DNA of 59,451 bases from a virus (taxonomy: Duplodnaviria; Caudoviricetes): IMG/VR virus record IMGVR_UViG_3300031281_000002, positions 1 through 59,451 of that record; one strand, given 5' to 3'. Both the position numbers and the translations under genes were made by a program. Of the stretch, positions 9,031 through 54,658 are shown piece by piece; the stretch's first letter is position 1, and every line of letters starts with the position of its first letter. The notes beneath the pieces were generated by a model. It ran no database searches, had not been told where the DNA came from, and saw nothing but the letters and a program-made list of their open reading frames with translations.

Positions 9031-9600
9031 TTATATTTCCTCCATTATCTTATTATAAATCATTTTTGCTAGTCTTCCAGATTCATCTAAAGACCAAACT
9101 TTTTTGTGAATCATTCCTTGTGTTATCTCAATAAAGCTTGTTGCTTCGCCATTTTTAATTTTAGTTAATCTGTTTAATATTCTGTTATAACTTTTTTCTG
9201 ATTCTTTTACTAAACTCATTGCTTCTTCTGTAATTTCAATATCTTTATAATTATTTATAAATTCTGTTAACATATCATATCTCATATCTATTAATGTTTT
9301 TGCTGAATCAATTTTTTTAATATTTTTTATTGTTGTTTCGATATCAGTTCTGTTTAGGTAATTTAGTTTTAAATCTTCATCAGTATTTTTTAATTGATTT
9401 TCTAATCTAGTAATTATTTTTTCTCTTATGTCTTTTGCCCAATCTACTTGTTTTTCGCTACCTTTTAATTCAACCATTTCATCACTATACAATGATTTCA
9501 AATTTAGTCCGAATTGTACTCTGTAATTTATATTAGTGTATATTTTTGCGTCCTCTCTAGTCATTTTATGAGCTTGTCTGAATAAATTTGATTTAGTCAT
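9031..9600 (-). CDS. Hypothetical early protein
   Basis: Promoter and RBS upstream; LKGSEKQVDWAKDIR motif; N-terminus paralogous to the ORF at 18978. Confidence 0.65.
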   Translation of the reverse strand: MTKSNLFRQAHKMTREDAKIYTNINYRVQFGLNLKSLYSDEMVELKGSEKQVDWAKDIREKIITRLENQLKNTDEDLKLNYLNRTDIETTIKNIKKIDSAKTLIDMRYDMLTEFINNYKDIEITEEAMSLVKESEKSYNRILNRLTKIKNGEATSFIEITQGMIHKKVWSLDESGRLAKMIYNKIMEEI

Positions 9601-9651
9601 TGTATTTTCCCCTTTTCGTTATTAGTAGGTTGTCTCTCAACCTCTAATTAT

Positions 9652-9680
9652 ATTATACTATATACGTATAGTAATTGCAA
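9652..9680 (-). promoter_or_regulatory. Sigma-A-like promoter
   Basis: Minus strand TTGCAA-17 bp-TATAAT. Confidence 0.6.
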
Positions 9681-9787
9681 TACATATATAGTAAATGTAA
9701 TATATATGTAATATATATGTAATATTATTATTTCTATTTGACATTTCTATTTTTTCATATTATAATATTATGTAAATAATAACCAAA

Positions 9788-13956: not shown

Positions 13957-14187
13957 TTGCAAAAACGTTCAGGATATATGAGGCCCGTTAAAAAGAATAT
14001 AGTCGGTAAGTTTAGAAGATGGAAAAATTTAAAACAAAAAGACATTGCAAATTATCTTTATATAAGCATAGGCACATATAGACAATTAGAAAGCAATGAT
14101 AGGAAATTAAAACTTAGTGAACAAGCTAAACTAGCTGAGCTTTTCGGGGTAAGCGAAAGTCAATTATATGAGGAGGATGAAAAATGA
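13957..14187 (+). CDS. Cro/CI-type HTH regulator
   Basis: LKQKDIANYLYISIGTYRQLES...KLAELFGV. Confidence 0.75.
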   Translation: MQKRSGYMRPVKKNIVGKFRRWKNLKQKDIANYLYISIGTYRQLESNDRKLKLSEQAKLAELFGVSESQLYEEDEK

Positions 14188-15026
14188 TTGGTTCAGATGG
14201 AATGATAAATGTAAAAGAAATATATGGAACCGAAGTAATTGTTGATATATTGCCTAAGAAATCGAATTATTCAAAATGGATTAAAAAAGATAATGAATAT
14301 TTGACTAATCACAACACAGGAAACAGTTCTAAAGGTGCAAATGCTTTAATGCATGCAAAATATCTTAAAGGTATTACAGAGTCTAAAAGCTGGCATATAA
14401 CAGTTGATGATAAATATATAATTCAACATTTACCTTTGAATGTTAACGGTTGGCATTGCACAGATGGAGTCGGATCACATTCTGGAAATATGAATTCAAT
14501 TGGAATAGAAGGCTGTATGAATAGCGATGGAGATTGGACAAAAACAAGATTAAACATGATAAAAGCTAATGTCTGGTTAATGGATAATTTAAAAAATTTA
14601 ATAGGTGACAACTGGAAGAAAACAATTGTTCCTCATAAGCACTGGTATAACAAAAATTGTCCTTCTGTAATATTAGCTGAACCTGGTGGATTTGATAAAT
14701 TTGTACAGGATTGCATTAATTATAATAATAATTTAAATAGTATAAATAATAATGCAGAATCAGAAGAATATGCAAAAATATTAAAACTAGTATCTCCAGA
14801 TTATTATAATGTCTGGATAAAATTTGTTAAAGATAATCAAAATTATAATTTAAAAGGATTGATTGAGAATTTATTTAATTATGGTAAAAATGAGATATTT
14901 GAGCAAGAGGAACATATATATAAGTTAAAAGCTGAATTAGAAGACATAAAAAATAGACACAGTAATGCTCATCATATTTTAGGTGAGATACAAAAGATGG
15001 CAGCCGATTATTTTACAGAAGAATAA
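14184..15026 (+). CDS. Endolysin, N-acetylmuramoyl-L-alanine amidase (Amidase_2)
   Basis: HNTGN, SWHITVDD, GWHC.DG, GNMNSIGIE, HKHWYNKNCP zinc-amidase motifs. Confidence 0.88.
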   Translation: MIGSDGMINVKEIYGTEVIVDILPKKSNYSKWIKKDNEYLTNHNTGNSSKGANALMHAKYLKGITESKSWHITVDDKYIIQHLPLNVNGWHCTDGVGSHSGNMNSIGIEGCMNSDGDWTKTRLNMIKANVWLMDNLKNLIGDNWKKTIVPHKHWYNKNCPSVILAEPGGFDKFVQDCINYNNNLNSINNNAESEEYAKILKLVSPDYYNVWIKFVKDNQNYNLKGLIENLFNYGKNEIFEQEEHIYKLKAELEDIKNRHSNAHHILGEIQKMAADYFTEE

Positions 15027-18797: not shown

Positions 18798-18902
18798 GGC
18801 TATACACCTTATATAATCCGGGAGGCTACCCCCTCTCATTTTTTTATAATTATATCATTATCCAGCTTCCTCAACAAATAATAATTATTTTGAATATATA
18901 TA

Positions 18903-18931
18903 TTGACAATCAAATATAATTATTATATAAT
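18903..18931 (+). promoter_or_regulatory. Consensus sigma-A (early) promoter
   Basis: TTGACA-17 bp-TATAAT. Confidence 0.75.
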
Positions 18932-18977
18932 ATAGTTAGAGGTTGAGAAACCTACTAATTATAAGGGAGATAATACA

Positions 18978-19130
18978 ATGACTAATTCAGAAAGATTTGT
19001 ACAGGCGCACAAAAACACTAGAAAGGCACTTCAAGAAAACACTAACTTAAACTACAGAGTACAATTCGATCTTGAATTAGCAGCAGAAGCAGTTGATTAC
19101 TTATATGAATTATACACAACAAAATTTTAA
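18978..19130 (+). CDS. Small early protein, paralogue of the N-terminus of 9031-9600
   Basis: MTNSERFVQAHKNTR...NLNYRVQF versus MTKSNLFRQAHKMTR...NINYRVQF. Confidence 0.6.
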   Translation: MTNSERFVQAHKNTRKALQENTNLNYRVQFDLELAAEAVDYLYELYTTKF

Positions 19131-19139
19131 TTTGGAGGA

Positions 19140-19355
19140 ATGAAAATGGAAAACAAAAAATATATTTTAAACAAACTTTTTGACAAAATCGAAGAATGTA
19201 TTATATTCGAAGATGGTGGATTCGAATATAGAAAAGAAAATGGAGTTTTATACTCCAGACAGGATAAAAAAGAAGAATGGACAACAGAAGATTGGGAAGG
19301 AACTACATCAGATTATAATATCTGGAAAAAACTTTTTGAAAGTTTTATTGACTAA
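19140..19355 (+). CDS. Hypothetical protein
   Basis: GGAGG RBS; early operon. Confidence 0.55.
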   Translation: MKMENKKYILNKLFDKIEECIIFEDGGFEYRKENGVLYSRQDKKEEWTTEDWEGTTSDYNIWKKLFESFID

Positions 19356-19410
19356 TTAGCTGTTAGCAGCCATCTAACAGGCGGCTGTTATAGAGTTAAT
19401 TACTCTAAAT
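19353..19410 (+). ncRNA. Repeated structured intergenic RNA element, copy 1
   Basis: TAATTAGCTGTTAG...TATAGAGTTAATTACTCTAAATAAAA is shared with 20393-20450, with compensatory changes. Confidence 0.6.
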
Positions 19411-19430
19411 AAAAATTATGGAGGTATAAA

Positions 19431-20054
19431 ATGTTTGTTTTAACAAATAAAAATATTAAAGTTGAGAAGGAAATGACTGGTTATGGAGTGGTGGAAAACT
19501 ATAAGTCGCTAATCGTGTTTGATTGCGAAAGCGATGGATTATATGGAGAATGCTTTGCATTTGGTGCAGTGGCTTTGAAATTATATCCAGACAATAAAGT
19601 ATCAATTATAGAAACAATTTGCTTGACATCAGAGGAAGGAAAGAAAAATATCTCTTCTGATTGGGTAAAAGAAAACGTATTACCACATTTGACAAATTTA
19701 GAAACTGTTCCAAGCAATTTAGAATTAAGACAAAAATTTTGGGATTTTTATTCTAAATATAAAGAAGATGAAAAGTACATTGGTACATATTCAGATGTTA
19801 ACTTCCCGGTCGAAACAAATTTTTTGGCACAAGTTGCTAAAGACGATTTAGAAAAAAGAGCTTTTAGTATGCCGTATCCATTATACGACATATCTAGCAT
19901 ACATAGCGATACAGATACAGATAGAGAAGATTTTTATATAAAAGAAAACGCTTACTTTATAGTGCAGGACGTAGCAATAAGAAAGCCTAAAAAACATAAT
20001 CCATTATGGGATTCGATATGTTCAGCATATTTTCTCTTAAATTATAAGAAATAA
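19431..20054 (+). CDS. DEDDh 3'-5' exonuclease
   Basis: VFDCESDG ... HNPLWDS motifs. Confidence 0.65.
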   Translation: MFVLTNKNIKVEKEMTGYGVVENYKSLIVFDCESDGLYGECFAFGAVALKLYPDNKVSIIETICLTSEEGKKNISSDWVKENVLPHLTNLETVPSNLELRQKFWDFYSKYKEDEKYIGTYSDVNFPVETNFLAQVAKDDLEKRAFSMPYPLYDISSIHSDTDTDREDFYIKENAYFIVQDVAIRKPKKHNPLWDSICSAYFLLNYKK

Positions 20055-20067
20055 TTAACTCTAAGAT

Positions 20068-20128
20068 TCGAAACGGGGTAAAACCCGTCTAGCAGATTAA
20101 CCGCCTGCTACTGATGAGATAGGTTAAT
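20068..20128 (+). ncRNA. Type II hammerhead ribozyme with pseudoknot
   Basis: GAAA, stem III CGGG/CCCG, GTC cleavage triplet, stem I TAGCAG/CTGCTA, CTGATGA; loop ATTAACC pairs with 3' GGTTAAT. Confidence 0.9.
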
Positions 20129-20148
20129 AAATTTAAAGGAGATATGTA

Positions 20149-20391
20149 ATGTATAAAAATTTTAAAAACAAAGAAACAATAAAAAATTATAGTGAATTTT
20201 GTAATTGGTTAAAACAAAATGATTTAGATTGCAAATATGAAACAAGAATAATAAATAACGATAAAATAGTAATATTTAAGAAAAATGGAAATATGATAAA
20301 TAATGACATGCATTCTTATATGTCTGATAATCCACCTAAAAGCTGGAATATTTTAAAGACATCAATAGAAAAAATAATGAATGCAAAATGA
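20149..20391 (+). CDS. Hypothetical protein
   Basis: AAGGAG RBS immediately after the ribozyme. Confidence 0.55.
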   Translation: MYKNFKNKETIKNYSEFCNWLKQNDLDCKYETRIINNDKIVIFKKNGNMINNDMHSYMSDNPPKSWNILKTSIEKIMNAK

Positions 20392-20392
20392 A

Positions 20393-20450
20393 TAATTAGC
20401 TGTTAGTACCTATCTAGCAGGTAGGCACTATAGAGTTAATTACTCTAAAT
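20393..20450 (+). ncRNA. Repeated structured intergenic RNA element, copy 2
   Basis: See 19353-19410. Confidence 0.6.
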
Positions 20451-20471
20451 AAAATTATAAGGGAGATTATT

Positions 20472-21848
20472 ATGAAAAATTTATTTAATGGTTCAAGAAT
20501 CGCAATCGAAGAAGAAAACAGAATATATGTACAAGGTGATTATACACCTTGGCATAATGAAGATGAAGATTGTATAGAAGGCCAAGATTGTCCATTAGTT
20601 TACAAAAATTTAGAATTAATTTTAATTGATGAAAATGGACTTTGGTTAGAGCAAAAAACAGATAAATCTTTATTAGAAGACACAACCTGGTGCTTGTATG
20701 AAACTGATTGCACAGGTGTTAAAGAAAATTATCTTGATGCTGAAGTATTGAAAAAAGAATTATGCATTGAAGAAGAGAAAGTAAAAGAAGAATGGACAAC
20801 ATTAACATGCAGCTTATGTGGACAAAGATTTTTATATCATACATCTAACGAATGTAAATGCTCATGTGGTGCAACTCTTAATCTATTTCCTGATGATGTT
20901 AAGATTTTATTAGCACCAACACTTGAAATTGCAAAAACAATTGATGCTGATATTACAATTGAGGCTGAATATGGTGATGAAACGATTAAAGGAACACTTT
21001 ACACATCAGCTCATCATGGTAAAAATCAAGGAAATCCAGCACCGTGTAATGATGATAATATACCAATTATTTTAGAAGGCACTATATTATTGAGCCATTT
21101 AGATTTAGATTCAATAATTGGTTGCATGAGAGCTTTAGGAATTGTACTAGATGAAAGGTTGTCTATGTTAGTAAATGCAATTGAGTATATAGATGTTAAT
21201 GGACCTCACCATCTATATAAATATGGTTGGCAAACTAAAATGTTTTTAAATGCTTATTGGGCTTGGAATTTTTCAAAAGGAAGACAGGAAAGAATTACAG
21301 AACTTACAGATGTTAGACAACAAGTATTAGAAACTATTAATGTAATTGAAGAAATAATATTACAAATGGCTGGAGTAGGAAAAAATGAAATTGATTATAT
21401 TAATGACGGTAAAAAATGGGCTGAAAATGTACAAAAAGAAACTGAATCAAAGCTTAAAAAAGAAACAAAATATTATAGATTGTTTTCAACAGATAGAGTA
21501 TTTTGTGGTGCTTCCTACTATAGCCCGCAAGAAAATACAATTATACCTGCAATAATCAGTTATAACGAAAAATTCAAAGCTATAACATTAAGCTTTGAAG
21601 ATAGTGGAAAGAAGTTTAAGGCTGATGAAATAATGAAAGAATTATTTGGACCTGGTGCAGGTGGTAAATCTGGTATAGCTGGAACGCCTAGAGGAATTGA
21701 ATTTACATTTGAAGATACTCGAAAAGTTATATCAAAGTTAAATTCTTTATACATGAATTGTCAGTGTCAAAATTGTTTTAATACATTCGACACAGATGTA
21801 AATAGTTGTCCAGTATGTGGTAGTCCAGATATATGGTATGGGAGGTAA
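20472..21848 (+). CDS. Multidomain protein with zinc ribbons and a DHH-like phosphoesterase region
   Basis: SAHHG, SHLDLD, IDVNGPH, AGGKSGIAGTPR; CxxC clusters. Confidence 0.45.
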   Translation: MKNLFNGSRIAIEEENRIYVQGDYTPWHNEDEDCIEGQDCPLVYKNLELILIDENGLWLEQKTDKSLLEDTTWCLYETDCTGVKENYLDAEVLKKELCIEEEKVKEEWTTLTCSLCGQRFLYHTSNECKCSCGATLNLFPDDVKILLAPTLEIAKTIDADITIEAEYGDETIKGTLYTSAHHGKNQGNPAPCNDDNIPIILEGTILLSHLDLDSIIGCMRALGIVLDERLSMLVNAIEYIDVNGPHHLYKYGWQTKMFLNAYWAWNFSKGRQERITELTDVRQQVLETINVIEEIILQMAGVGKNEIDYINDGKKWAENVQKETESKLKKETKYYRLFSTDRVFCGASYYSPQENTIIPAIISYNEKFKAITLSFEDSGKKFKADEIMKELFGPGAGGKSGIAGTPRGIEFTFEDTRKVISKLNSLYMNCQCQNCFNTFDTDVNSCPVCGSPDIWYGR

Positions 21849-21854
21849 ATAGAC

Positions 21855-22265
21855 ATGGAAAATGAAAGAATTTTATTAGAAAAAGAGCTTGAAGGCAGTT
21901 TATATTCAGAAGAAGACATATCAGAAATGGATATAGAAGAATTAAGAAATGTAGTAAATCAATTTAAATCATTTAAAAATGAATTAAGCGAAACATCAAA
22001 ATATTTTGAAAGTTTTTCAAGGAAAATAATAATTGAAAAGCTTAAAAGCTTAAATTTAAAATTTTTAAAAATTCAATGTCATACTAATACAGTATTTATA
22101 GCTGTATATAACAACAATATAATATCACGCGATGATTCATTTTTTGGTAATGTAAATTATTATTTTAATAATACTATACTTATAGAAAATGTAACTAGAG
22201 AAGAAGTAAGATACATAGACGGAAAAAGAGAAGAAGATGTTATTAAAAAATTTATGGATTTATAG
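21855..22265 (+). CDS. Hypothetical protein
   Basis: GGAGG RBS. Confidence 0.55.
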   Translation: MENERILLEKELEGSLYSEEDISEMDIEELRNVVNQFKSFKNELSETSKYFESFSRKIIIEKLKSLNLKFLKIQCHTNTVFIAVYNNNIISRDDSFFGNVNYYFNNTILIENVTREEVRYIDGKREEDVIKKFMDL

Positions 22266-22274
22266 GTGATTATT

Positions 22275-22442
22275 ATGAAACAAGAAAACCGCGGCGGTCG
22301 CAGAAAAGGAGCAGGCCGCCCGCTGATAGGAGATAAAAAAGTATTTAAAGGTTTCTATATTACCGAAAAAGAAAATAAGCTTTTGAAGGAATATTTGAGG
22401 AAGCTGAGAGAGGGGAACAAAAATGAAAATGACATGTCCTGA
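22275..22442 (+). CDS. Small DNA-binding protein with AT-hook-like GGRRKGAGRP motif
   Basis: Own translation MKQENRGGRRKGAGRPLIGDKKVFKGFYITEKENKLLKEYL... Confidence 0.6.
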   Translation: MKQENRGGRRKGAGRPLIGDKKVFKGFYITEKENKLLKEYLRKLREGNKNENDMS

Positions 22443-22644
22443 ATGCAACCATGTAGTATCAAGTTATTCACAAAAATGTATGAATTGTGGACTTCCAACT
22501 AAAATTATTGAAATTTCATATGGAGATTGTTATAACTGTAATGGAACTGGAAAAGTTGGTCCATCTGGATATTCAGGTTCTACTTGCTTTACGTGTGAAG
22601 GAAGTGGAAGAACAAAAAAATTCACGTTAAAGGAGAAAATGTAA
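22423..22644 (+). CDS. Zinc-finger protein (DnaJ-type CxxCxGxG repeats)
   Basis: CPEC, CMNC, CYNCNGTG, CFTCEGSG. Confidence 0.6.
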   Translation: MKMTCPECNHVVSSYSQKCMNCGLPTKIIEISYGDCYNCNGTGKVGPSGYSGSTCFTCEGSGRTKKFTLKEKM

Positions 22645-22888
22645 TGAAAAAAAATATTATGGTGTTTGATGTAGAGTCAAATGGATCATCATGCCATGTC
22701 CATTGATGGATATAGCTAATGTCAACAATATTGACATTGACAGAATAGAATTTTATGAAAAGAAAAATGCTTTTTACATAGCACAGTCACCAGCAACAAG
22801 GAAATTAAGAAAACATAATCCTTTAGATGATGCAATTGCAAGTTTATGTTTAAAGCTTGATAAAATTATTTATTATGATATTAAATAA
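22644..22888 (+). pseudogene. Internally deleted paralogue of the exonuclease at 19431
   Basis: MKKNIMVFDVESNG joined out of frame to MPCPLMDI...RKHNPLDDAIAS. Confidence 0.7.
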
Positions 22889-23005
22889 GATTGTTAGGAA
22901 GCTGAGAGAGGAAAAATAAACCTCTCTCTTTTTCTATAGAATATGATATAATATATTTAGTGTATATAAATGTTTTTTAATTTTCATTAGGATTTCTTTC
23001 TTTCC

Positions 23006-23037
23006 AAAAAGACCTATTCTCCTTGATAGGTCTTTTT
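23006..23037. terminator. Bidirectional terminator
   Basis: AAAAAGACCTAT...ATAGGTCTTTTT. Confidence 0.6.
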
Positions 23038-23391
23038 GTTGTTCTTTTTTATAAATAGAATTAACCCAGTATTGGTAGTACTGGGTTGGTTCAAAAACTT
23101 AATTTATTTTTTTAATCTATATTGTATTATACCACAAATATTTTACATAAAAAAGTCCCCCAGACTGCGACCCAGTTACAAGAGAACTTTTTACAAGATA
23201 AAAGCTCCTAAGCAAATTAACCTTGTTTTACAGAAGCAAAAAAAATAAAAAGCCACAAAACATTTTATTTTTTATAATTATACCACTTTTCTTGTATACA
23301 AATTGAACAAAAAATATATTATTTATTTTTATTGTATTATTAAATGAGTATGATATAATTTACTAGTACTATAAAATTCGAATGGAGGTAT

Positions 23392-23688
23392 ATGCAAATG
23401 GAGTTTTTTGTTTTCCCTAGAAAACTTATAGATAATAAAAAATTTAATAAAATGAATGGAGATTCTAAGATTCTTTATATGTTGATGTTAGATAAATTTT
23501 TTGACAAAAATCAGGTTATATCAATTGATAACGGAAAATATATACTTTTTACAAATGTAGAAATAATGGAAAAGCTTAATTGTGCAAATGAAAAAGCAAC
23601 AAGGATAAAAAAAGAATTAATTGATAATGGATTAATTGATATTAATATGAAAAGTTTTAGAAAATATATTAAAGTCAATGTTTTATGA
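23392..23688 (+). CDS. RepA_N-like winged-helix protein
   Basis: FFVFPRKL...SKILYMLMLD...YILFTNVEIMEKLNC...IKKELIDNGLI. Confidence 0.7.
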   Translation: MQMEFFVFPRKLIDNKKFNKMNGDSKILYMLMLDKFFDKNQVISIDNGKYILFTNVEIMEKLNCANEKATRIKKELIDNGLIDINMKSFRKYIKVNVL

Positions 23689-23715
23689 TAATTATAAAAG
23701 AAAGAAGGCTAAGTC

Positions 23716-24600
23716 ATGAGGTATACTTTATATGGATTTTCTCAACAAATAGCAGTTGAATATGGTTTAGATCATAATGACTTATTAATACTAAGATGGT
23801 TTATTGATTTTAAAGATACAAATGATATGGTACATGAAGTGATAAATGGGGAAATTTATTACTGGATAAAGTATAAAAAGATTTTTGAAGACTTGCCAAT
23901 TTTAAATATAAAATCAAAAGATGTTATAAGAAGAAGATTAAAAAAATTAGTAGATAAAAAAATATTGACTCATTATACAAAAAAGAACATGGGTACATTT
24001 TCTTTTTATGGTGTTGGCCAAAACTATCTAAAATTAATAAGCACAGATTGGGGTACGACTTTAAAGTCGGGGGGTACGACTTTAAAGTCGGAGGGTACGA
24101 CTCAAAAGTCGGAACCGTACGACTCAAAAGTCGGAGGGGGTACGACTCAAAAGTCGGAACAAAATATTAATCTATTAAAAGATGATTCTATTAAAGATAT
24201 AAAAGAAGAGTGTGTAAAAAATAAATTTTTACACGAATCTGATGAAATGAAATTATCTAAGCTTCTTTTTAAAAAGATGAAAGATAATAACGATAAAGCA
24301 AAAGAACCTAATTTCCAAAAGTGGGCCGAAAATATAGATAAGCTTATGAGGCTTGATAAATATTCTGCAGATGAAATAACAAAAATGATTGAATTCTGCC
24401 AGTCTGACCATTTTTGGAAAAGTAATATACTTTCGACTAAAAAACTGAGAGAAAAGGCTGGTACTTTGATAATACAAATGAATAAGGATAAAGAGAAAAA
24501 AGGAAATAATAATCCTGCTCAAACCCAGAATTATGATCAAAGAAAATATGATAATGAATTTTGGGAAGAGTATGAAAAAGATATTCAATATATTAAATAA
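23716..24600 (+). CDS. Phage replication initiator (lambda O analogue)
   Basis: N-terminal winged helix, internal iterons, C-terminal FWKSNILSTKKLREK. Confidence 0.8.
   Translation: MRYTLYGFSQQIAVEYGLDHNDLLILRWFIDFKDTNDMVHEVINGEIYYWIKYKKIFEDLPILNIKSKDVIRRRLKKLVDKKILTHYTKKNMGTFSFYGVGQNYLKLISTDWGTTLKSGGTTLKSEGTTQKSEPYDSKVGGGTTQKSEQNINLLKDDSIKDIKEECVKNKFLHESDEMKLSKLLFKKMKDNNDKAKEPNFQKWAENIDKLMRLDKYSADEITKMIEFCQSDHFWKSNILSTKKLREKAGTLIIQMNKDKEKKGNNNPAQTQNYDQRKYDNEFWEEYEKDIQYIK
24053..24157. repeat. Five iterons, phage replication origin
   Basis: GTACGACT(TT/CA)AAAGTCGG at 24053, 24074, 24095, 24117 and 24140, each with CGACT..AGTCG dyad symmetry. Confidence 0.85.
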
Positions 24601-24611
24601 GGAGTGATAAA

Positions 24612-25256
24612 GTGAGTTACACAGAAATAAAAATAGGTAATAGAGTTTTTAAAATGAAAAGCGGAATACCGCTTCAAGAACCTGAACAAATTCGAGATTA
24701 CAATATTCCAACTGAATATAAAAACAAAACTTTTGATAATTTTATAACAAATAAAGAAAATTATCAAATAGTTGAAAGTCTTAAAAATTTTTCTTTAAAA
24801 TTCAAAGATTATAAGGGTTTAAGCTTTTATATAAGTGGTGCAACTGGAACAGGGAAGACAATGTTGTCATGTTGTATTTATAAAAATGTTTTTGATTCAG
24901 GATATAAATGTTTGTTTATAAACATTAATGATATGTTTGACATGGTAAAACAGTCATATAATCCACGCAACAGTTCAGAAGCTAATTTTGAAAACAAATT
25001 AAATGTAGTTGACTTATTAATTCTTGATGATATTGGGTCAAATCGAATGAATGATTGGACATATCAAATTATTTATAAAGTTATAAATACAAGATACGAA
25101 AATAATAAGTCAATAATATTTACATCAAATTGCAGTATGACAAATCTTTATAAATATATAGATGATGAAAGAATAATATCAAGGATAGCAGGTAAATGTA
25201 AAAATAGAATATATAAGCTTTCTGGATATGATTGGAGGTATAAAAATGGAAATTAA
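24612..25256 (+). CDS. DnaC/IstB-like AAA+ helicase loader
   Basis: Walker A GATGTGKT, Walker B LLILDDIG, FTSN, RIISRI. Confidence 0.88.
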   Translation: MSYTEIKIGNRVFKMKSGIPLQEPEQIRDYNIPTEYKNKTFDNFITNKENYQIVESLKNFSLKFKDYKGLSFYISGATGTGKTMLSCCIYKNVFDSGYKCLFININDMFDMVKQSYNPRNSSEANFENKLNVVDLLILDDIGSNRMNDWTYQIIYKVINTRYENNKSIIFTSNCSMTNLYKYIDDERIISRIAGKCKNRIYKLSGYDWRYKNGN

Positions 25257-26354: not shown

Positions 26355-26573
26355 ATGAAAATAATAGATATAATTGCAAATGAAAAAATGTTTATTAAAA
26401 GAATAGACATAGATGGTTGTTCAACTTCTGTTGATATAGAATATGAAATTCATGGGAGGAAATCAAATTATAGAATATACTTTAAAACTATTGATTTAGC
26501 AGAATATAAAATAGGAGATATATTGAATTTTAATAAAGAAGAATTTCAAAAACTTTGTGAGAAAGTGAGGTGA
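26355..26573 (+). CDS. Hypothetical protein
   Basis: Start at the junction repeat. Confidence 0.5.
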   Translation: MKIIDIIANEKMFIKRIDIDGCSTSVDIEYEIHGRKSNYRIYFKTIDLAEYKIGDILNFNKEEFQKLCEKVR

Positions 26574-26578
26574 GAAAG

Positions 26579-27451
26579 ATGAAAGGACAAATGTTAATTA
26601 ACGAAAATCAAATAATTGAAAATGAACTAGATTACCTTATTAAAAAATCTATATTAAGATTAAAAACATTTGAACCTGAAGATAATTATTGGCTTGCTTT
26701 TTCAGGCGGTAAAGATTCAATTATTATACATGATTTAGCTTTAAAAGCTGGAGTAAAATTTGAAGCAAATTATAATATAACAACTGTAGACCCACCAGAA
26801 CTTATTTATTATATTCGCGAAAAATATAAAAATGTTAAACATAATATGCCTCCTGACAATATGACTATGTGGAAACTTATAATTAAAAAGAAAATGCCTC
26901 CAACACGATTAATGAGATATTGTTGTCAATATTTTAAGGAAGCAGGAGGCGATGGTAGAACTGTTGTAACTGGAGTAAGATGGGATGAATCTAACAAAAG
27001 AAAAAAGAAAAGAGCTGCAATTGAAGCGAATGCAATGAGAAAATACGTTATAAAAACAAATGACAACGAAGAAGGGAGACATATTTTTGAAAATTGTAAT
27101 ATGAGAAGCAAACATATAATAAATCCAATTATAGACTGGAAAGATTATCATATTTGGGAATATATAAAAAAATATAAATTAGATTATTGCAAATTATATG
27201 ACGAAGGATGGAATAGATTAGGATGTGTTGGCTGTCCGATGCAGGGTAAAAAAGCGATTAAGGAATTTAATCGCTGGCCTAAAATAAAAGAACAATACAT
27301 AAGAACATTTGAAAAAATGATTGAAAAAAGAATTGAAGATGGATTAAAAACAACTTGGAAAACTGGTCAAGAAGTTTTTGACTGGTGGATTTGTGAAAAT
27401 GAAAAACAAAAAGAATATATTTGTGATGGTCAAATAAGTTTATTTAAATGA
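26579..27451 (+). CDS. PAPS-reductase (CysH/DndC-like) family protein with Fe-S cysteines
   Basis: AFSGGKDS PP-loop, RYCC..FKE, GVRWDES..R, RLGCVGCP. Confidence 0.85.
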   Translation: MKGQMLINENQIIENELDYLIKKSILRLKTFEPEDNYWLAFSGGKDSIIIHDLALKAGVKFEANYNITTVDPPELIYYIREKYKNVKHNMPPDNMTMWKLIIKKKMPPTRLMRYCCQYFKEAGGDGRTVVTGVRWDESNKRKKKRAAIEANAMRKYVIKTNDNEEGRHIFENCNMRSKHIINPIIDWKDYHIWEYIKKYKLDYCKLYDEGWNRLGCVGCPMQGKKAIKEFNRWPKIKEQYIRTFEKMIEKRIEDGLKTTWKTGQEVFDWWICENEKQKEYICDGQISLFK

Positions 27452-27784: not shown

Positions 27785-28033
27785 ATGAAACCTGTTGAAT
27801 TTACTAAAGTTACGAAAAAATATATCCAGAACAAAGTAAATGAATACGAAAATATAATAGCACCTGAATCAAGAGATATTTTATATAACAAAACTTTAGA
27901 AATTTTAAAAAAAGAAAGGATAAAACTTTCAGATATGAAAGCCATTACATACTGGTTAGGAAAAGGATTTATACAAATAGCTTTTTATACAAAAGATAGG
28001 TATTTTACAAGAGATTTTGAGGTGTATAGATAA
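27785..28033 (+). CDS. Hypothetical protein
   Basis: Start at the junction repeat. Confidence 0.5.
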   Translation: MKPVEFTKVTKKYIQNKVNEYENIIAPESRDILYNKTLEILKKERIKLSDMKAITYWLGKGFIQIAFYTKDRYFTRDFEVYR

Positions 28034-28344
28034 TGGACATTAAAGAAATATTAAATTTAAAACAAGAGCAATTGGACTTATATATTATTAAAATAAAAGA
28101 GATTCAGGAAGATATAAAGTTTTACAAAAGTTTAATTAATAGAAATATTAAAAGTATAAATTATGACAAAATAACAGACCAAGAACTTAAAATTATATTA
28201 TATGTTCAGAAAGGATTGATTAATAAAGAAATTGCGGCAGAAACTAATTTAAGTATAAACACTATAAAAAAACATCTTTCAAACATTTATTTAAAAACTG
28301 GTTTGAATAGATATGAGCTTATTAAATTTAATGAATATAAGTGA
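28033..28344 (+). CDS. LuxR/GerE-type HTH protein
   Basis: ITDQELKIILYVQKGLINKEIAAETNLSINTIKKHLSNIYLKTG. Confidence 0.8.
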   Translation: MDIKEILNLKQEQLDLYIIKIKEIQEDIKFYKSLINRNIKSINYDKITDQELKIILYVQKGLINKEIAAETNLSINTIKKHLSNIYLKTGLNRYELIKFNEYK

Positions 28345-30077: not shown

Positions 30078-30269
30078 ATGAGAATTATTTATAATTATAG
30101 TACAGCCGATTGTGAAAACATAGAAGGGTATGAAATTTTACCAGAGGAATTTTATACTCCAGTTACAAAAGTAATGGACATAAATAAGATTGAGGCAGCA
30201 GAATACGAGAACTTTTTAGTAAGTTCAGGATATTATAAAACATTTGATTTTGTAAAGGAGGCTATTTGA
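30078..30269 (+). CDS. Hypothetical protein
   Basis: AAGGGGG RBS; preceded by a long inverted repeat at about 30000-30061. Confidence 0.45.
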   Translation: MRIIYNYSTADCENIEGYEILPEEFYTPVTKVMDINKIEAAEYENFLVSSGYYKTFDFVKEAI

Positions 30270-31033
30270 TGGATACCGAAATGAAAGAATTAAATATTTA
30301 TCAAAAAATTTCTGTATTACAGGATATTGTAAAAGTAAATAAAGATAAAGTAAATGAATTTGCTAATTTTAAATATAGAACTATACAAAATATTTTAGAA
30401 GAAGTTAAGCCAACATTAAAAGATTTGGATTTAATAATACATTTTGGATCTGGAAAGTTAGACGGAGAAAAATATATATTAGATATGGTTATAACAGATA
30501 TAAACAAACCAGATAATCAAATAATAGAGACTGGAGAAATATACATTGACCGGACTAAAGCAAAAATGGATTTATCACAGAAATGCTTATCAGCTAAAAC
30601 ATTTTTGAAAAAAACAATGCTAGAGGATTTATTATTGATTAGTGAAGATACAGATCCAGATTCACATGACAATAGAAATAACGAAACTATTGATGGTATG
30701 AAAAAAGCAAATGAAAGAATTAAAAATGATTATGATGATTTAGTTGAAAAATTTAAAATTCTTAAAGAAAAATACAAAGAATTAGAATCACTTAAGCATT
30801 CACTTCCAGAAAATACAGAAGATGAAAACAATATATTAATAAATGATAAACAATTAAAACTACTTTGTACACTTCAAACAAATGCTAAAGTATCAGACGA
30901 AGCTTTAAAAAACTATTTAATAAAAACATTTAAAATAGATTCAAGAAAAAAATTAACTATTATGCAGCTTGAAAATGTTGTTAAAAAGTTAAATGCAACT
31001 ATAAAAGAAAATAAGAAAAAGGAAGTATCTTAA
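30266..31033 (+). CDS. ERF-family single-strand annealing protein
   Basis: NFKYRTIQNILEEVKP ... EDTDPDS. Confidence 0.65.
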   Translation: MMDTEMKELNIYQKISVLQDIVKVNKDKVNEFANFKYRTIQNILEEVKPTLKDLDLIIHFGSGKLDGEKYILDMVITDINKPDNQIIETGEIYIDRTKAKMDLSQKCLSAKTFLKKTMLEDLLLISEDTDPDSHDNRNNETIDGMKKANERIKNDYDDLVEKFKILKEKYKELESLKHSLPENTEDENNILINDKQLKLLCTLQTNAKVSDEALKNYLIKTFKIDSRKKLTIMQLENVVKKLNATIKENKKKEVS

Positions 31034-31055: not shown

Positions 31056-31610
31056 ATGAAAAAATACACAGTAATAGACATCGAAACAACTGGATTCAAA
31101 CCAGAAGAAGGAGCAGAAATAACAGAAATAGCAGGTTGCAACTGCGTAGATGGTGAAGTGTTAACAAGTTTTTCAAGTACAGTTAAAATAACTGGTATAG
31201 TAACAGAATTTATAAGAGAATTAACAGGTATAACTAATGACATGGTTAAAAATTCTGAATGCTTAGAAAAGGTATTTATTGATTTTATGGATAGTTTGAG
31301 TATTGATAAAGATACTAATTTAGTAATACATAATGCTGAGTTTGATTTTAATTTTATAATTTATCATATTACAAGAAATTCAATCATTCCTAAAAATTAT
31401 ATTGATAGATTTAAAAGCGTAAATATTATTTGTAGCTTAGAATTATCAAGAAAATTATTATCTGGAAGTCATAAATTAGAAGATTTAAAGAAAAGATTTG
31501 GCATAAATACAAAAAGTCATAGAGCTTTAAATGATGTACTTGTGACTAATAAAATTTATACTAAATTGCTGGAATTGGAGGCTGAAAATGACAATAAAAC
31601 AAATTTGTAA
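31056..31610 (+). CDS. DnaQ-like 3'-5' exonuclease
   Basis: VIDIETTG, HNAEFD, SHRALNDV (DEDDh). Confidence 0.88.
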   Translation: MKKYTVIDIETTGFKPEEGAEITEIAGCNCVDGEVLTSFSSTVKITGIVTEFIRELTGITNDMVKNSECLEKVFIDFMDSLSIDKDTNLVIHNAEFDFNFIIYHITRNSIIPKNYIDRFKSVNIICSLELSRKLLSGSHKLEDLKKRFGINTKSHRALNDVLVTNKIYTKLLELEAENDNKTNL

Positions 31611-32708: not shown

Positions 32709-33251
32709 ATGACTAACAATAAAAAAAATAAGCGAGGAAGAAAAAGTAAATATTATACTCATGTAGAACCGAAACTTGACTTGATTGAAGATTGGAGACA
32801 AAAAGGAGATACGGAGGAACAAATATCAAATAAATTAGGAATATCTTATAAATCATTAAATGAATATAAATTAAAATTTCCACAATTTACACAAGTACTA
32901 AGGGCGTCAAAAGAAAGATTGGCAATAAATCTCAAAAAAAGTTTATGGAAAGAAGCTTTAGGATATGAGTATGAAGAGGTAAAAAAAACAGAGGAAAAAA
33001 GTTATTTAGGCAATAAAACAAAAACTGAGAAAACTAAAAAGAAATTTAGAGGACAGCCGAATTTATTAATATTTGCCTTATGTAATTTGTTACCAGATGA
33101 ATTTAAGAGGATTGATAAAGAGATAATTAAAGAATTAGAGGATAAAATTGACGAGAAACTTGAATATAATAATGACATATTCAAAAAAGAGTTTGAAAAG
33201 TTATTTCCAAAAAAGAATATAAAAACAGATAAAGAAACTGGAAAGAAATAA
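32709..33251 (+). CDS. terS: Terminase small subunit
   Basis: GRKSKY, HTH, LWKEALGYEYEE, LIFALCN; directly before terL. Confidence 0.75.
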   Translation: MTNNKKNKRGRKSKYYTHVEPKLDLIEDWRQKGDTEEQISNKLGISYKSLNEYKLKFPQFTQVLRASKERLAINLKKSLWKEALGYEYEEVKKTEEKSYLGNKTKTEKTKKKFRGQPNLLIFALCNLLPDEFKRIDKEIIKELEDKIDEKLEYNNDIFKKEFEKLFPKKNIKTDKETGKK

Positions 33252-33270
33252 AAGGATATAGGTAGCTTTA

Positions 33271-35607
33271 ATGTCACATATAGAATTAAGAGATATTGTA
33301 ACAAATATTACAGATTGGGATCATAAACTTGGTATAGCTCCAAGAACATTTGAACAATTTTATTTTTGGATAAATGAATTTTTTGGATATTACATACCTT
33401 ATTCTAATGAAAAACCGTGTGAAGGACATTCTTATCCTTTATCTGCAATGTGGGAAGCTTATGCCGAAATAACACCGATGGCTATATGGTATGCAAATAG
33501 AGCGGGTGGGAAAACATATGATTTATCTGTTTTATCATTTATGGAATCTATATTTAAAAAAAATTGCGGGATAAATATATTAGGTGGTTCATTAGACCAG
33601 GCACAAAAAGCAATATCGTATTTAACAGAATTTTGGGATTTTCCTAATGCACCAACACATTTATTAGTTGGAAATCAAGTATCTAAAAGAGGATATAAAT
33701 TAACTAATGGGTCATGGGTAAGAGCGTTAGCGGCGAGTTCTAAATCAGTAAGAGGAAGCCATCAACCTAAATTGCGAATTGACGAATGCTTGACAGGTGA
33801 CACATTAATAAAAACAACACATGGATATAAAAAAATAATAGAAATAAATAACAAAGATATAGTATATGGATGGAACGGTGTTAAAATAAAAAAATGTATG
33901 GTACAATATAATTGTTATATGGGTGAGAGAAAAACATATAAAATTTTTTTCTCTAACGGTAAATATATAAATTGTACTGAAAACCATAAAATTTTAACAA
34001 CGAAAGGATATAGAAATTTAAATGAAATCAGAAGGTGGAAATGTAAGGGTGAATCAATCTTTGTTATCGGTGAACGTAAAAAGTTGTTTAATGTGTGGAA
34101 AAAAATTAAATTTAAAAAGAAAATATACAACAGGATATTGCCAAGAATGTTATATAAAATTAAATTCTGTACCAAAAAAATATTGTCAAGATTGCAAAAA
34201 AGAAATAACAAAAAATTCAACGATATGCAGAAGTTGCTATGCAAAAAGAAGAAAAGCAAAGAAACCAAAATGTATAGAATGTGGAAAAGAATTGAGGCAT
34301 ATTGCAAAACGTTGCAAAAAATGCTATTTAAAACACCTTTCGAAAATAGGAATGGATTCAAGAATGGCAAAGGCAAGAGCGACAGCATTGAAGAAAAATC
34401 CAACAAAAGCAGAAATACAAGCATCAGAATTATTAGAATATTTAAAAATATCATATCAATCACAAGTACCATTTGGAAGATACATAGTAGATTTTTTATG
34501 CAAAGATTTAAATTTAATAATAGAGGTACATGGAGAATATTGGCACAACAGAGAAAAGACGATAAAAATAGACGAAAGAAAGAAAATATTTTTAGAAAAA
34601 GAAGGATACAAAGTTCTGGTATTAAAAACAACATTAATGCATTTATGGTTTTCAAAAATTATGAAGTTTATGAAATAGTAAATATAAAAGATGATAAAAT
34701 AAATAAAGTTTATGATTTGAAAATTAAAGGGCTTAAATCATTTTTAGCAAATGGAATAATAGTTCACAATTGCGATGAACTTGATAAAAATATATACTTA
34801 GCGGCTTTGGGGCAGCCAAAAACAATGAATGGAATTCCAGAAAATATAATTATATCATCAACATTGCATCAACCATTTGGTTTAATGAGTGAAATAGTTG
34901 AATCAAAAGATGATATAGGAGCAAAATTATTTAAATGGTGTGTTAAAGAAGTTCAAGAACCACACGGATATTGGAAAGAAGCAGAAATAAAATTAAAAAA
35001 AAGACAGATTACAAAAGCGATGTTCGATGCTGAATATTTATGCCTCCGTCCTAAAATCGGAGATACAATATTCGATTTTGAATCTGTAGATAGGTCCTAT
35101 AGAAGAGGAATTAAAGATAAATATAATAAAAAATTATATACAGAAGCAGGAATCGATTGGGGTTATGCGGTTACAGCAATGAGTATTATACAGGACACTA
35201 AAGAAATATTTACAAATCCTATTACTAAAACTTTTGAGTATATTGAATTGACAGATAGGTGTAGAGAAATAGCTGATTTATGTATAGAATATGATATAAA
35301 GATAATTTATTGTGATAGCAATCCAAAAGACAGTAATATTACATTAAAAAAGATACTTAAAGAAAAAAGATGCCAAACAGAATTGATTACAATAGCATTT
35401 AATAAATGGAAAGATGTTGGAATAAATGTGATAAGATTATTATTAGAAAAAAATAGGCTTAATATAACTGACAAAACAGCACAGGAAAAATGTAAAAAAT
35501 ATCATTATAAGAATCCTGAACAGGGTATTATTGCGAAAGAAGATGATCATATTCCAGATAGTTTAATTGCGTGGGGTAGTTCAAGGCATCATTTATTAGG
35601 AATATAA
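33271..35607 (+). CDS. terL: Terminase large subunit containing an intein
   Basis: Walker A NRAGGKT, VRG, Walker B LRIDE split by the intein, nuclease GIDWG and DDHIPDS. Confidence 0.9.
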   Translation: MSHIELRDIVTNITDWDHKLGIAPRTFEQFYFWINEFFGYYIPYSNEKPCEGHSYPLSAMWEAYAEITPMAIWYANRAGGKTYDLSVLSFMESIFKKNCGINILGGSLDQAQKAISYLTEFWDFPNAPTHLLVGNQVSKRGYKLTNGSWVRALAASSKSVRGSHQPKLRIDECLTGDTLIKTTHGYKKIIEINNKDIVYGWNGVKIKKCMVQYNCYMGERKTYKIFFSNGKYINCTENHKILTTKGYRNLNEIRRWKCKGESIFVIGERKKLFNVWKKIKFKKKIYNRILPRMLYKIKFCTKKILSRLQKRNNKKFNDMQKLLCKKKKSKETKMYRMWKRIEAYCKTLQKMLFKTPFENRNGFKNGKGKSDSIEEKSNKSRNTSIRIIRIFKNIISITSTIWKIHSRFFMQRFKFNNRGTWRILAQQRKDDKNRRKKENIFRKRRIQSSGIKNNINAFMVFKNYEVYEIVNIKDDKINKVYDLKIKGLKSFLANGIIVHNCDELDKNIYLAALGQPKTMNGIPENIIISSTLHQPFGLMSEIVESKDDIGAKLFKWCVKEVQEPHGYWKEAEIKLKKRQITKAMFDAEYLCLRPKIGDTIFDFESVDRSYRRGIKDKYNKKLYTEAGIDWGYAVTAMSIIQDTKEIFTNPITKTFEYIELTDRCREIADLCIEYDIKIIYCDSNPKDSNITLKKILKEKRCQTELITIAFNKWKDVGINVIRLLLEKNRLNITDKTAQEKCKKYHYKNPEQGIIAKEDDHIPDSLIAWGSSRHHLLGI
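33787..34770 (+). mobile_element. Intein (328 aa) inserted at the terminase Walker B motif
   Basis: Block A CLTGDTLI, block B CTENH, blocks F/G VYDLKI...FLANGIIVHN followed by Cys+1. Confidence 0.92.
34022..34678 (+). CDS. Zinc-finger plus Vsr/DUF559-like endonuclease, overprinted in the +1 frame inside the intein
   Basis: CxxC repeats; PTKAE...QVPFGRYIVDF...IIEVHGEYWH...D..K...L...GYKVL. Confidence 0.8.
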   Translation: MKSEGGNVRVNQSLLSVNVKSCLMCGKKLNLKRKYTTGYCQECYIKLNSVPKKYCQDCKKEITKNSTICRSCYAKRRKAKKPKCIECGKELRHIAKRCKKCYLKHLSKIGMDSRMAKARATALKKNPTKAEIQASELLEYLKISYQSQVPFGRYIVDFLCKDLNLIIEVHGEYWHNREKTIKIDERKKIFLEKEGYKVLVLKTTLMHLWFSKIMKFMK

Positions 35608-37519: not shown

Positions 37520-38248
37520 ATGAATTTTGTTGAAAGAAAAATAAATAATTTTTATAGAATAATTGATAAAGCAATGAATAAATATAAAAAACATTATATT
37601 AGTTGCAGTTGGGGTAAGGATTCAATTTTAGTAGTACATTTGATAATATCAAGATATCCAGACACAACAATAATTTTTATGAATTCTGGATATGCTTTAT
37701 CAGATATATATAAATTTAGGGATTATTATTTGAAAGAATATAGAGTAAAAAATTATATAGAATTAAAATGTCCTCATGATTATGTTGAATTAAATTTAAA
37801 ATATGGGTTACCTTCGATTGACAGAAGTATTTCAGATCATGAAAAAGTTAAAAATATAATAAAAAAAGATGTAATTGATGAATGGGCAATAAAAAATAAT
37901 TATGATTGTTGTTTTTGGGGAATAAGAGCAGATGAAACAGCAGGTAGAAAAAAATTATTAAGAAAATATGGATTGTTATATAGAACTTCTGAAATAGCAA
38001 AATGTTCACCTATTGGATGGTGGGGAAATAATGATGTATGGAATATTATTGATTGTTTAAACATTCCATATTCTAAAATATATGATAAAGAACTTAAACC
38101 ATTTTTTACAAGAGATACAATAAAAAATGGTGGATATTTAACAACAGATAAAGCTAATAAAGGTAGGATAATTTGGTTAAAAAAATTTTATCCTACTGAT
38201 TATGAAAAATTATTTTCGAAATTTATTGAGGTAAAAAAATATGTTTGA
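37520..38248 (+). CDS. CysH-like (PAPS reductase family) protein of the type IV-B module
   Basis: SCSWGKDS, GIRADE..GR, SPIGWW; lacks the CC/CxxC Fe-S motifs. Confidence 0.8.
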   Translation: MNFVERKINNFYRIIDKAMNKYKKHYISCSWGKDSILVVHLIISRYPDTTIIFMNSGYALSDIYKFRDYYLKEYRVKNYIELKCPHDYVELNLKYGLPSIDRSISDHEKVKNIIKKDVIDEWAIKNNYDCCFWGIRADETAGRKKLLRKYGLLYRTSEIAKCSPIGWWGNNDVWNIIDCLNIPYSKIYDKELKPFFTRDTIKNGGYLTTDKANKGRIIWLKKFYPTDYEKLFSKFIEVKKYV

Positions 38249-53944: not shown

Positions 53945-54595
53945 ATGAAAAGATTTAAAAAATTATTACTTACATTATTATTAAGTCCTATTTTACCAAT
54001 ATTTTGGGTTGCTGATGATAACTCGAATAATGATGATTCTGGCGATGCTGTAGATGATAATAAAAATGACAGCAATGGCAATGGTGAAAATGACAATAAT
54101 GATAATGAAAAATCAAATGATAAAAAAGTAATTTTTGATAGCCAGGATGCTTTTGATAAAGTGATTTCAAAAAGAATTAATCAGGCTATTAAAAATAAAC
54201 AAACAGAATGGGAAAATGAAAAAAAGAAAGCTGAAATGACAGAAGTTGAAAGATTAAAAACAGAAAAAGCAGAAGCAGAAACGAGAGCAAATACAGCTCT
54301 TGAAAATGCAAATAATATTTTGCTTAAAGCTGAAGTTATTTCAGGATGTTCTAGCTTGAATATCATAGATGCAGATGCAGCACTTGCGTTAATTGATAGA
54401 AGCGGAATAGAAATCGATGGAAGTAATGTTAAAGGTGTAAAACAAGCTTTAAAAGATTTAATTGAAGGAAAACCTTGGTTAGTTAAAAATGATGATAATG
54501 TTAAACCTTCTGGAGATGACCAGAATAGTAATCCTGACAAGAATAAAGGTACAACTAATATGAACGCTATTCTAAAGAGGATGGCAGGATATTAA
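53945..54595 (+). CDS. Capsid scaffolding protein
   Basis: D/N-rich linker, SQDAFDKVISKRI, coiled coil, KPWL; precedes the major capsid gene. Confidence 0.8.
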   Translation: MKRFKKLLLTLLLSPILPIFWVADDNSNNDDSGDAVDDNKNDSNGNGENDNNDNEKSNDKKVIFDSQDAFDKVISKRINQAIKNKQTEWENEKKKAEMTEVERLKTEKAEAETRANTALENANNILLKAEVISGCSSLNIIDADAALALIDRSGIEIDGSNVKGVKQALKDLIEGKPWLVKNDDNVKPSGDDQNSNPDKNKGTTNMNAILKRMAGY

Positions 54596-54658
54596 TTATT
54601 ATTATACTTATCTACCAATCAATTTAAATTTTTTAAAGGAAAAATTTAAAATTGCGAG

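Follow-up and report, generated by a model that had tools for sequence, protein, structure and literature searches.

The 59,451-bp DNA analyzed here, referred to as the window, represents a complete virus record of IMG/VR (IMGVR_UViG_3300031281_000002; Caudoviricetes), with direct terminal repeats of 127 bp and a G+C content of 27.2%. Its plus strand, which holds nearly all of the genes, carries at positions 20066–20133 an intergenic element that is very probably a type II hammerhead ribozyme; these limits are the extent of a covariance-model match, while the minimal motif spans 20068–20128. The element lies between an open reading frame (ORF) of 207 amino acids (19431–20054), whose TAA stop codon at 20052–20054 leaves 11–12 nucleotides (nt) to the ribozyme, and an ORF of 80 amino acids (20149–20391). 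The start codon of the latter, the ATG at 20149–20151, is preceded by the Shine-Dalgarno sequence AAAGGAG at 20135–20141. The initial annotation, made from the DNA letters alone, had the element end just before this ribosome-binding site, and so it does: the tail of the folded ribozyme ends at 20128, and the Shine-Dalgarno sequence begins 6 nt farther on. The start of the 80-amino acid gene is overlapped by a two-codon mini-ORF at 20144–20151 (ATG TAA, then ATG: ATGTAATG). Farther downstream lies a gene for a protein of 458 amino acids (20472–21848). Searches of PHROGs, Pfam, and the protein atlas found no credible family for the 207-, 80-, or 458-amino acid protein.

Read from 5′ to 3′, the minimal motif opens with the 5′ strand of stem II, T20068 and C20069 (C11.1 in hammerhead numbering), and continues with G12-A13-A14 at 20070–20072. 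Stem III is a hairpin of 5 bp formed by ACGGG (20073–20077) and CCCGT (20084–20088) around the loop GTAAAA (20078–20083). C17 and U1.1 correspond to C20089 and T20090, and the bond between them (20089/20090) is the predicted scissile bond, the position at which the hammerhead consensus is cut after GUC in the alignments. Stem I consists of 6 bp between TAGCAG (20090–20095) and CTGCTA (20105–20110) and is closed by the nine-base loop I, ATTAACCGC (20096–20104). It is followed by the core heptamer CTGATGA, i.e., C3-U4-G5-A6-U7-G8-A9, at 20111–20117, and by the 3′ strand of stem II, in which G20118 (G10.1) pairs with C20069 and A20119 with T20068. Thus, every position of the catalytic core matches the hammerhead consensus, and the topology is that of type II, in which stem II is the open helix and loops cap stems I and III. 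The minimum-free-energy fold of 20060–20135 consists of just the two capped hairpins, stem III and stem I. The core elements of the initial annotation (C-GAAA, GTC with C20089, stem I, CTGATGA-G, and a 2-bp stem II) all lie where it had located them. The CGGG/CCCG pairs that it gave for stem III are present as well, but the stem is better counted as 5 bp, with A20073-T20088, the A15.1-U16.1 pair, forming part of it.

Loop I also contributes one strand of a predicted pseudoknot. The sequence ATTAACC at 20096–20102 is complementary over 7 bases to the tail GGTTAAT at 20122–20128, where most type II members have at least 4 bp; a single base, A20121, spaces the tail strand from stem II and the U·U mismatch (20120/20067) at the third stem II position. 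When a spacer base between stem I and the pseudoknot strand is missing, standard pseudoknot stereochemistry limits the number of pairs that can form together. The 7-bp pseudoknot initially annotated thus holds as a complementarity, but because no base separates it from stem I, probably only about 5–6 of its pairs form beside the full stem.

The first line of evidence for the identity of the element comes from its viral relatives. IMG/VR was scanned with two core patterns; one returned at least 127 stretches, and the other, with the tail ...CTGATGAGATAGG, showed the layout CUGAUGA-GAU-A-GGnnn in 113 stretches. Nearly all pattern matches in IMG/VR carry proper stems. Sequences with a loop III of at most 8 nt, a loop I of 6–14 nt, and at least 4 pseudoknot pairs were kept, giving 148 distinct sequences, and removal of those at least 90% identical at equal length left 130. 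Most of the sequences left out represent another subtype, in which stem II has 4 bp and loop I has 3–5 nt. The window's own element is not in the set, and its closest member there is 81% identical. The 130 sequences were aligned with MAFFT (alignment A1), and a covariance model, R1, was built from the alignment. Applied to the whole window with filters off, R1 matched 20066–20133 with 58.0 bits (E 4e-11), a score that is not fully independent of the motif because the training patterns, which left stems, spacing, and loops unconstrained, fix the candidate's own core letters. The other 18 matches of R1 in the window at E ≤ 10 scored at most 11.7 bits. Metagenome hammerheads outside the training set aligned to R1 at full length with 43.8–74.8 bits; the window's score lies within this range, at rank 33 of 37 matches.

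The second line of evidence is covariation. The RNAalifold structure of A1 contains all three stems, with compensatory changes at 13 of its 14 predicted pairs. When the pseudoknot is included, 89.1% of the alignment cells are paired, vs 61.9% in shuffled alignments and 33–42% in slid controls; the covariation score is 0.665 vs 0.182, a value reached by none of 500 shuffles. All six pairs of stem I covary in the family, as do the columns of stem III. In the pseudoknot, columns 54/83 hold GC in 59 sequences, AU in 28, GU in 10, and UA in 7, and columns 56/82 hold GC in 72, AU in 27, and CG in 12. The stems and pseudoknot of the window occupy these covarying columns, and its A-U pseudoknot pairs fall where 27–28 of the 130 sequences also have AU. 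C11.1 and GAA are invariant in all 130 sequences; so is CTGATGAG, an invariance that the search patterns partly imposed. The window itself is among the rows of a second alignment, A2, where 35–36 of the 36 distinct rows form the five inner pairs of the pseudoknot, and only a minority form the two outer pairs of the window; it should be noted that the tail letters in A2 were mostly fixed by the search pattern, whereas the loop side was free. Compensating changes in loop and tail are seen in second hammerheads of these loci that had not been selected by the pattern. Distant metagenome members likewise retain the architecture with fully compensated stems: locus L271 has stem I as in the window with a different stem III, and L266 has a stem I of TATCAG/CTGATA.

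Several viral contigs hold two or three type II hammerheads 250–400 nt apart, each just before a start codon (L202, L022, L074, L128, L277, L248, and L253, from IMG/VR and metagenomes), a tandem arrangement as in reported prophages; in L202, three nearly identical copies are spaced by about 350 nt. A type II hammerhead on the metagenome contig L257 has, at a distance of about 240 nt, a tmRNA-like match (RF00023; 586–661) whose 32.2 bits fall short of the gathering score of 47. When genome contigs were scanned for the subclass pattern, it was found at three loci in unrelated metagenome-assembled genomes, with no clue to the host.

The third line of evidence is conservation in a natural relative. 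The relative comprises the metagenome loci L247 and L267, which came from a metagenome scan and are mutually identical in this region, and one 766-nt contig of run X3, found by comparing contigs of three DNA runs with the window. Over the 63 nt of 20066–20128, its only difference from the window is an A in place of G20103, an unpaired base in the 3′ part of loop I; in the 5′ flank, G20065 is also replaced by A. Identity in the homologous coding flanks is 84.4% (18914–19080) and 85.3% (20448–20786). At a divergence of about 15%, at most one change in 63 nt would have a probability of about 4e-4 in an unconstrained segment, according to our own binomial arithmetic. The element is therefore either constrained or recently exchanged; the high conservation could reflect recent recombination of the segment, the comparison being with the one close relative lineage that was found.

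Chance resemblance was assessed with a core pattern and two descriptors. The pattern CGAAA-N10-30-GTC-N15-35-CTGATGAG, which the window contains once, did not occur in any of 100 dinucleotide shuffles. Searching 3000 Markov-1 random windows, equal to the real one in length and composition, with a strict-core type II descriptor that demands at least 4 bp in stem I and at least 3 bp in stem III gave 6 matches, so that the descriptor by itself has a chance expectation of about 0.002 per window. Only one of these six matches reached a stem I of at least 6 bp and a stem III of at least 5 bp, and it spans 118 nt, vs 50 nt here. A relaxed descriptor (CUGANGA, GAAA, UH, and short stems, in all three topologies, i.e., types I, II, and III) is unspecific alone, as 49 of 200 random windows contained at least one match; applied to the 59-kb window, it gave no hammerhead of any type other than the site at 20066–20133.

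On this evidence, which is of sequence and predicted structure, 20066–20133 on the plus strand is very probably a genuine type II hammerhead self-cleaving ribozyme of the pseudoknotted subclass with an open stem II of 2–3 bp. This is the identity proposed by the initial annotation, and it is upheld by a full-length alignment to the Rfam family Hammerhead_II (RF02276), the R1 score of 58 bits, the covariation in the family, and the conservation in the relative. The pseudoknotted subclass (CUGAUGA-GAU-A-GGnnn) is abundant between phage genes, and the element is an ordinary addition to a class already known to be common there.

Besides the caveats already attached to the R1 score and to the conservation, several observations weigh against this assignment. 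A scan of the whole window at the Rfam gathering thresholds matched no family. An 86-nt slice (20055–20140), searched with laxer filters, aligned to positions 1–66 of the 66 of RF02276 over 20066–20128 of the window, with 26.2 bits and an E-value of 6.4e-4 over 4227 families; this score is below the gathering score of 37, the operational threshold. The Infernal comparison that the initial annotation had proposed thus supports the assignment by its full-length alignment but not by its score. Moreover, the RF02276 match was absent from an E-value search of 301 nt (19950–20250) and from a search of the genome itself, which we attribute to loss in the filters: the scaled E-value of a 26.2-bit match in the 301-nt search would be about 0.002, and the Infernal filters alone decide whether it is visible. 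The element is AU-rich in its stems and pseudoknot, with 41% G+C against a family median of 55%. The third stem II position is a U·U mismatch. Finally, ATTAAC at 20053–20058 is a second possible partner of the tail GGTTAAT (20122–20128) and could compete with the active fold; a minimum-free-energy fold, in which pseudoknots cannot be drawn, does pair it with the tail.

The low Rfam score is explained by the behavior of Rfam on sister sequences. R1 identified 25 hammerheads in 20 metagenome loci, of which Rfam listed 17 (11 with at least 37 bits and 6 with 31.3–36.9 bits). The eight that it missed include the near-identical relative in L247. Default Rfam annotation misses the window's ribozyme because its helices are AU-rich, and, since such an element is invisible to the gathering scan and is lost to the Infernal filters, AT-rich phages are probably under-annotated for this ribozyme.

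The same observations bear on a rival reading in which the element is hammerhead-like but cleaves no longer, either as a relic or as a sequence that matches by chance within an AT-rich intergenic region. The score under the Rfam gathering score and the mismatch at the third stem II pair would suit such a sequence, and some of the hammerhead-like RNAs listed by Perreault et al. (2011; PMC3088659) were inactive in vitro. However, no position of the core deviates from the consensus, the chance expectation is about 0.002 per window, and the near-absence of substitutions in 63 nt is not what the divergence of the coding flanks predicts for an unconstrained segment. Nor is the mismatch exceptional, as a U·U or other mismatch occurs at this stem II position in 15 of the 130 family members. 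We consider this reading, as relic or as chance match, very improbable.

The arrangement of genes around the element in the relative raises two further readings. In the X3 contig, the match to the window extends from 20062 to 20131 with two differences; the sequence before 20062 is unlike that of the window, and past 20131 the contig jumps, after 15 other letters, to 20469, skipping the 80-amino acid gene. The 80-amino acid gene is missing here from L247 and L267 as well. In L267, a different gene of 189 amino acids precedes the ribozyme, and its stop codon abuts it; directly after the ribozyme comes a gene whose product shares 81% identity over its first 106 residues with the window's 458-amino acid protein. 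The product of the 189-amino acid gene is 41% identical over 81 residues to that of 9031–9600 on the minus strand of the window. A homolog of the 80-amino acid gene was also seen in a contig of run X3 (20148–20448; 15 differences in 301 nt), in another context, with its own GGAGG and without a hammerhead tail. Because this homolog stands behind unlike sequence without such a tail, the ribozyme is not tied to the 80-amino acid gene. A ribozyme-less variant suggested by a joint in an X3 contig that skips 20066–20154 was dropped, as only 22 letters with 80% likeness lie on one side of it.

One of these readings takes the hairpins for a terminator or attenuator, or for a site acting at the DNA level such as a recombination junction, with an RNA that is not catalytic. 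The homology with the relative does begin at 20062, about 4 nt before the 5′ edge of the ribozyme, the two phages carry different genes on its 3′ side from 20149 onward, and stem III is a G+C-rich hairpin. A role of the DNA alone would nevertheless leave the perfect core and the compensatory changes in RNA helices unexplained, and we regard this reading as barely credible. An intrinsic terminator at stem III was rejected: neither hairpin is followed by a T run, and the scan for terminators is silent on the plus strand from 18837 to 23005.

The other reading retains the ribozyme and adds to it. The near-identity of the 63-nt ribozyme in two phages, the start of the homology about 4 nt before its 5′ edge, and the insertion, in one of them, of an extra gene between the ribozyme and the downstream gene would fit a hammerhead that acts as a portable 5′-leader cassette marking the boundaries of phage gene modules, both as a processing site and as a patch of DNA homology for cassette exchange. 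This is a speculative proposal, and we hold it to be unlikely. If true, the cassette would give whichever gene lands behind it a defined, structured leader with a 5′-OH ahead of the Shine-Dalgarno sequence, and cleavage might also unmask a start site sequestered by a helix between 20016–20043 and 20130–20154.

The helix just mentioned is a window-specific feature of uncertain significance. Its 5′ arm (20016–20043, plus strand) contains the last codons of the upstream gene, its 3′ arm (20130–20154) contains the Shine-Dalgarno sequence and the ATG of the 80-amino acid gene, and the two lie on opposite sides of the predicted cut. They suggest a variant in which the hammerhead is real but its effect is gated by the flanks: segment 20016–20043 would mask the Shine-Dalgarno sequence and start codon until cleavage or ribosomes free them, and the pairing of ATTAAC (20053–20058) with the tail (20122–20128) could keep the ribozyme inactive until then. 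The minimum-free-energy fold of 20010–20165 encloses the ribozyme in a helix of 25 pairs (−31.9 kcal/mol; z −2.48), and 3 of 200 shuffles were as stable. The duplex of the arms alone (−17.0 kcal/mol) is matched in stability at 1.1% of 2372 genome positions of the same geometry and in 0.2% of 2000 shuffles. On the other hand, the helix was noticed post hoc in a genome of 27% G+C, it is absent from L267, which retains the ribozyme (z +0.5), and a 25-bp duplex would not separate unaided after cleavage. Gating by the flanks is, in our opinion, improbable. As a feature of the family, a flank-to-flank helix was rejected: the mean over 247 hammerheads is −10.4 kcal/mol, vs −10.1 kcal/mol in shuffled sequences and −10.9 and −13.8 kcal/mol at shifted positions.

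The position of the ribozyme relative to neighboring genes is a recurrent trait. An ORF start preceded by a Shine-Dalgarno sequence lies within 45 nt after G10.1 in 171 of 219 distinct viral type II hammerheads, vs 20 of 219 control positions. The distance from G10.1 to the start codon has its mode at 20–29 nt and is usually 20–39 nt; in the window, it is 31 nt. The upstream ORF ends 0–9 nt away in 119 of 216 family members; the corresponding distance in the window is 12 nt. Such tight spacing suggests a role of the ribozyme connected with the start of translation downstream. A further reservation about this interpretation is that the same spacing could arise simply from the short gaps between genes in compact phage genomes.

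In the window, the ribozyme and all of its neighboring genes are on one strand, within a predicted promoter-terminator unit. A predicted sigma-70 promoter at 18903–18931 (plus strand; TTGACA-17-TATAAT, a candidate by its 12/12 consensus match only) has a terminator-like hairpin just ahead of it, at 18820–18837. The first predicted plus-strand terminator after it is a hairpin of 14 pairs with a T run at 23005–23038; the scan reported nothing on this strand between 18837 and 23005. By these signals, the predicted unit is about 4.1 kb long, and the ribozyme separates its third ORF from its fourth. The −10 box of the promoter, the TTG with which its −35 box starts, and the leader recur in L267, and the −10 box and TTG recur in a paralogous region of the window. 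Indeed, 18860–19080 (plus strand), 9474–9740 (minus strand), and L267 1–253 have in common a promoter-like region (TTG −35 start and TATAAT), the leader TTAGAGGTTGAG, and a gene start reading MT.S..F. The 50-amino acid ORF at 18978–19130 resembles an N-terminal remnant of the 189-amino acid gene that is intact at 9031–9600 (minus strand) and in L267.

The initial annotation proposed that the ribozyme processes an early polycistronic mRNA. Such processing fits the sequence, from which we infer the early timing, the transcription, and the cleavage in vivo; a function as an operon-processing site is likewise inferable, plausible, and precedented. In the mechanism that we favor for the hammerhead, it would be transcribed within the polycistronic RNA of about 4.1 kb that runs from the promoter to the terminator. 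With the polymerase beyond about 20128, formation of stems III and I would be accompanied by pairing of the tail GGUUA(AU) with loop I, docking stem I on the short stem II. The 2′-OH of C17 (C20089) would then attack the adjacent phosphate, with G12 (G20070) and G8 (G20116) presumably in their usual roles of general base and general acid, and the RNA, having folded cotranscriptionally, would be cut between 20089 and 20090. The upstream product, with the genes of 18978–20054, would end in the stem III hairpin with a 2′,3′-cyclic phosphate. The downstream product, with the genes from 20149 onward, would begin with a 5′-OH that is base-paired in stem I and would carry its Shine-Dalgarno sequence 6 nt past the ribozyme remnant. 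As a likely outcome, each half of the operon would have a stability and translation uncoupled from those of the other.

Comparison with described hammerheads places the element among familiar relatives. According to PMC3088659, the type II consensus includes a pseudoknot between loop I and a tail immediately 3′ of stem II, which can be as short as two pairs, and hammerheads flank prophage genes; the initial annotation's statement that pseudoknotted type II hammerheads are known between phage genes agrees with that source. The window's element resembles RF02276, as the family is described, in its core, its 2-bp consensus stem II, the tail that pairs with loop I, and its intergenic location in a phage. 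The consensus structure in Rfam, which draws the tail behind the two stem II pairs as unpaired, has this same architecture. It differs from most relatives in a loop I that is one base shorter on the 5′ side and in a pseudoknot complementarity of 7 bases rather than 5. From the GAU-A-GG subclass assembled here (IMG/VR, JGI; A1 and A2), it does not differ in kind, its R1 score lying near the low end of the range given above. The layout, (A/G/U)UC-GAAA ... CUGAUGA-GAU-A-GGnnn, is the same, with a stem I of 6–7 bp and a pseudoknot core of T(A/G)ACC with GGT(T/C)A.

Precedents for the proposed role come from two sets of hammerheads. The hammerhead of haloviruses HF1 and HF2 (HHphage), according to PMC3088659, belongs to an early polycistronic transcript and is separated by 13 nt from the start codon downstream of it; the 5′ end mapped for this transcript coincides with the cleavage site. 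It thus shares with the window's element a position a few nucleotides before a start codon, in the early-gene part of the genome and on a polycistronic transcript, and the same role is proposed here. Unlike the latter, HHphage belongs to an archaeal virus, is a structural variant with an unusual salt dependence, and stands ahead of the first ORF of its transcript. The tandem prophage hammerheads of Agrobacterium tumefaciens (at ardA), Clostridium scindens, and Azorhizobium caulinodans are likewise reported between cistrons of polycistronic RNA; they cleave in vitro, and the A. tumefaciens one also cleaves in E. coli. In the 59-kb genome of the window, in contrast, only one hammerhead was found, and the flanking genes are without known function. 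A 2019 review treats the processing of polycistronic RNAs into parts that differ in stability or translation as a suggestion that needs work (PMC6765202).

Taken alone, the window's copy is one more phage hammerhead in a class with thousands of members. Together with its relative, however, it constitutes a natural experiment, in which the same ribozyme stands behind different upstream genes and directly ahead of different downstream ones. The pair could serve to test the effect of the ribozyme on the gene behind it, a question described as open in reviews (PMC6765202).

Other searches around the locus returned little. Megablast of 19000–22000 against 50,697 phage records gave no match. Searches with the 207-amino acid protein yielded four weak loci, with partial matches of 33–40% identity and no hammerhead in any of them at E ≤ 1, and those with the 458-amino acid protein yielded no relative.

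On the scale of the whole genome, the ribozyme resides in a block of small genes of unknown function at 15–23 kb, between the lysis and replication modules. PHROG matches define a tail module with the tape measure gene (1611–4400), a lysis module with an amidase (14184–15026), and replication genes encoding DnaD-like (23392–24600) and DnaC-like (24612–25256) proteins, Erf (30266–31033), and an exonuclease (31056–31610). They are followed by matches to the terminase (32709–35607), the portal (39017–40510), and the scaffold and major head protein (53945–55663). The phage also has two separate PAPS-reductase-like genes (phrog_424), at 26570–27451 and 37520–38248, and a small sigma-factor-like ORF at 28033–28344.

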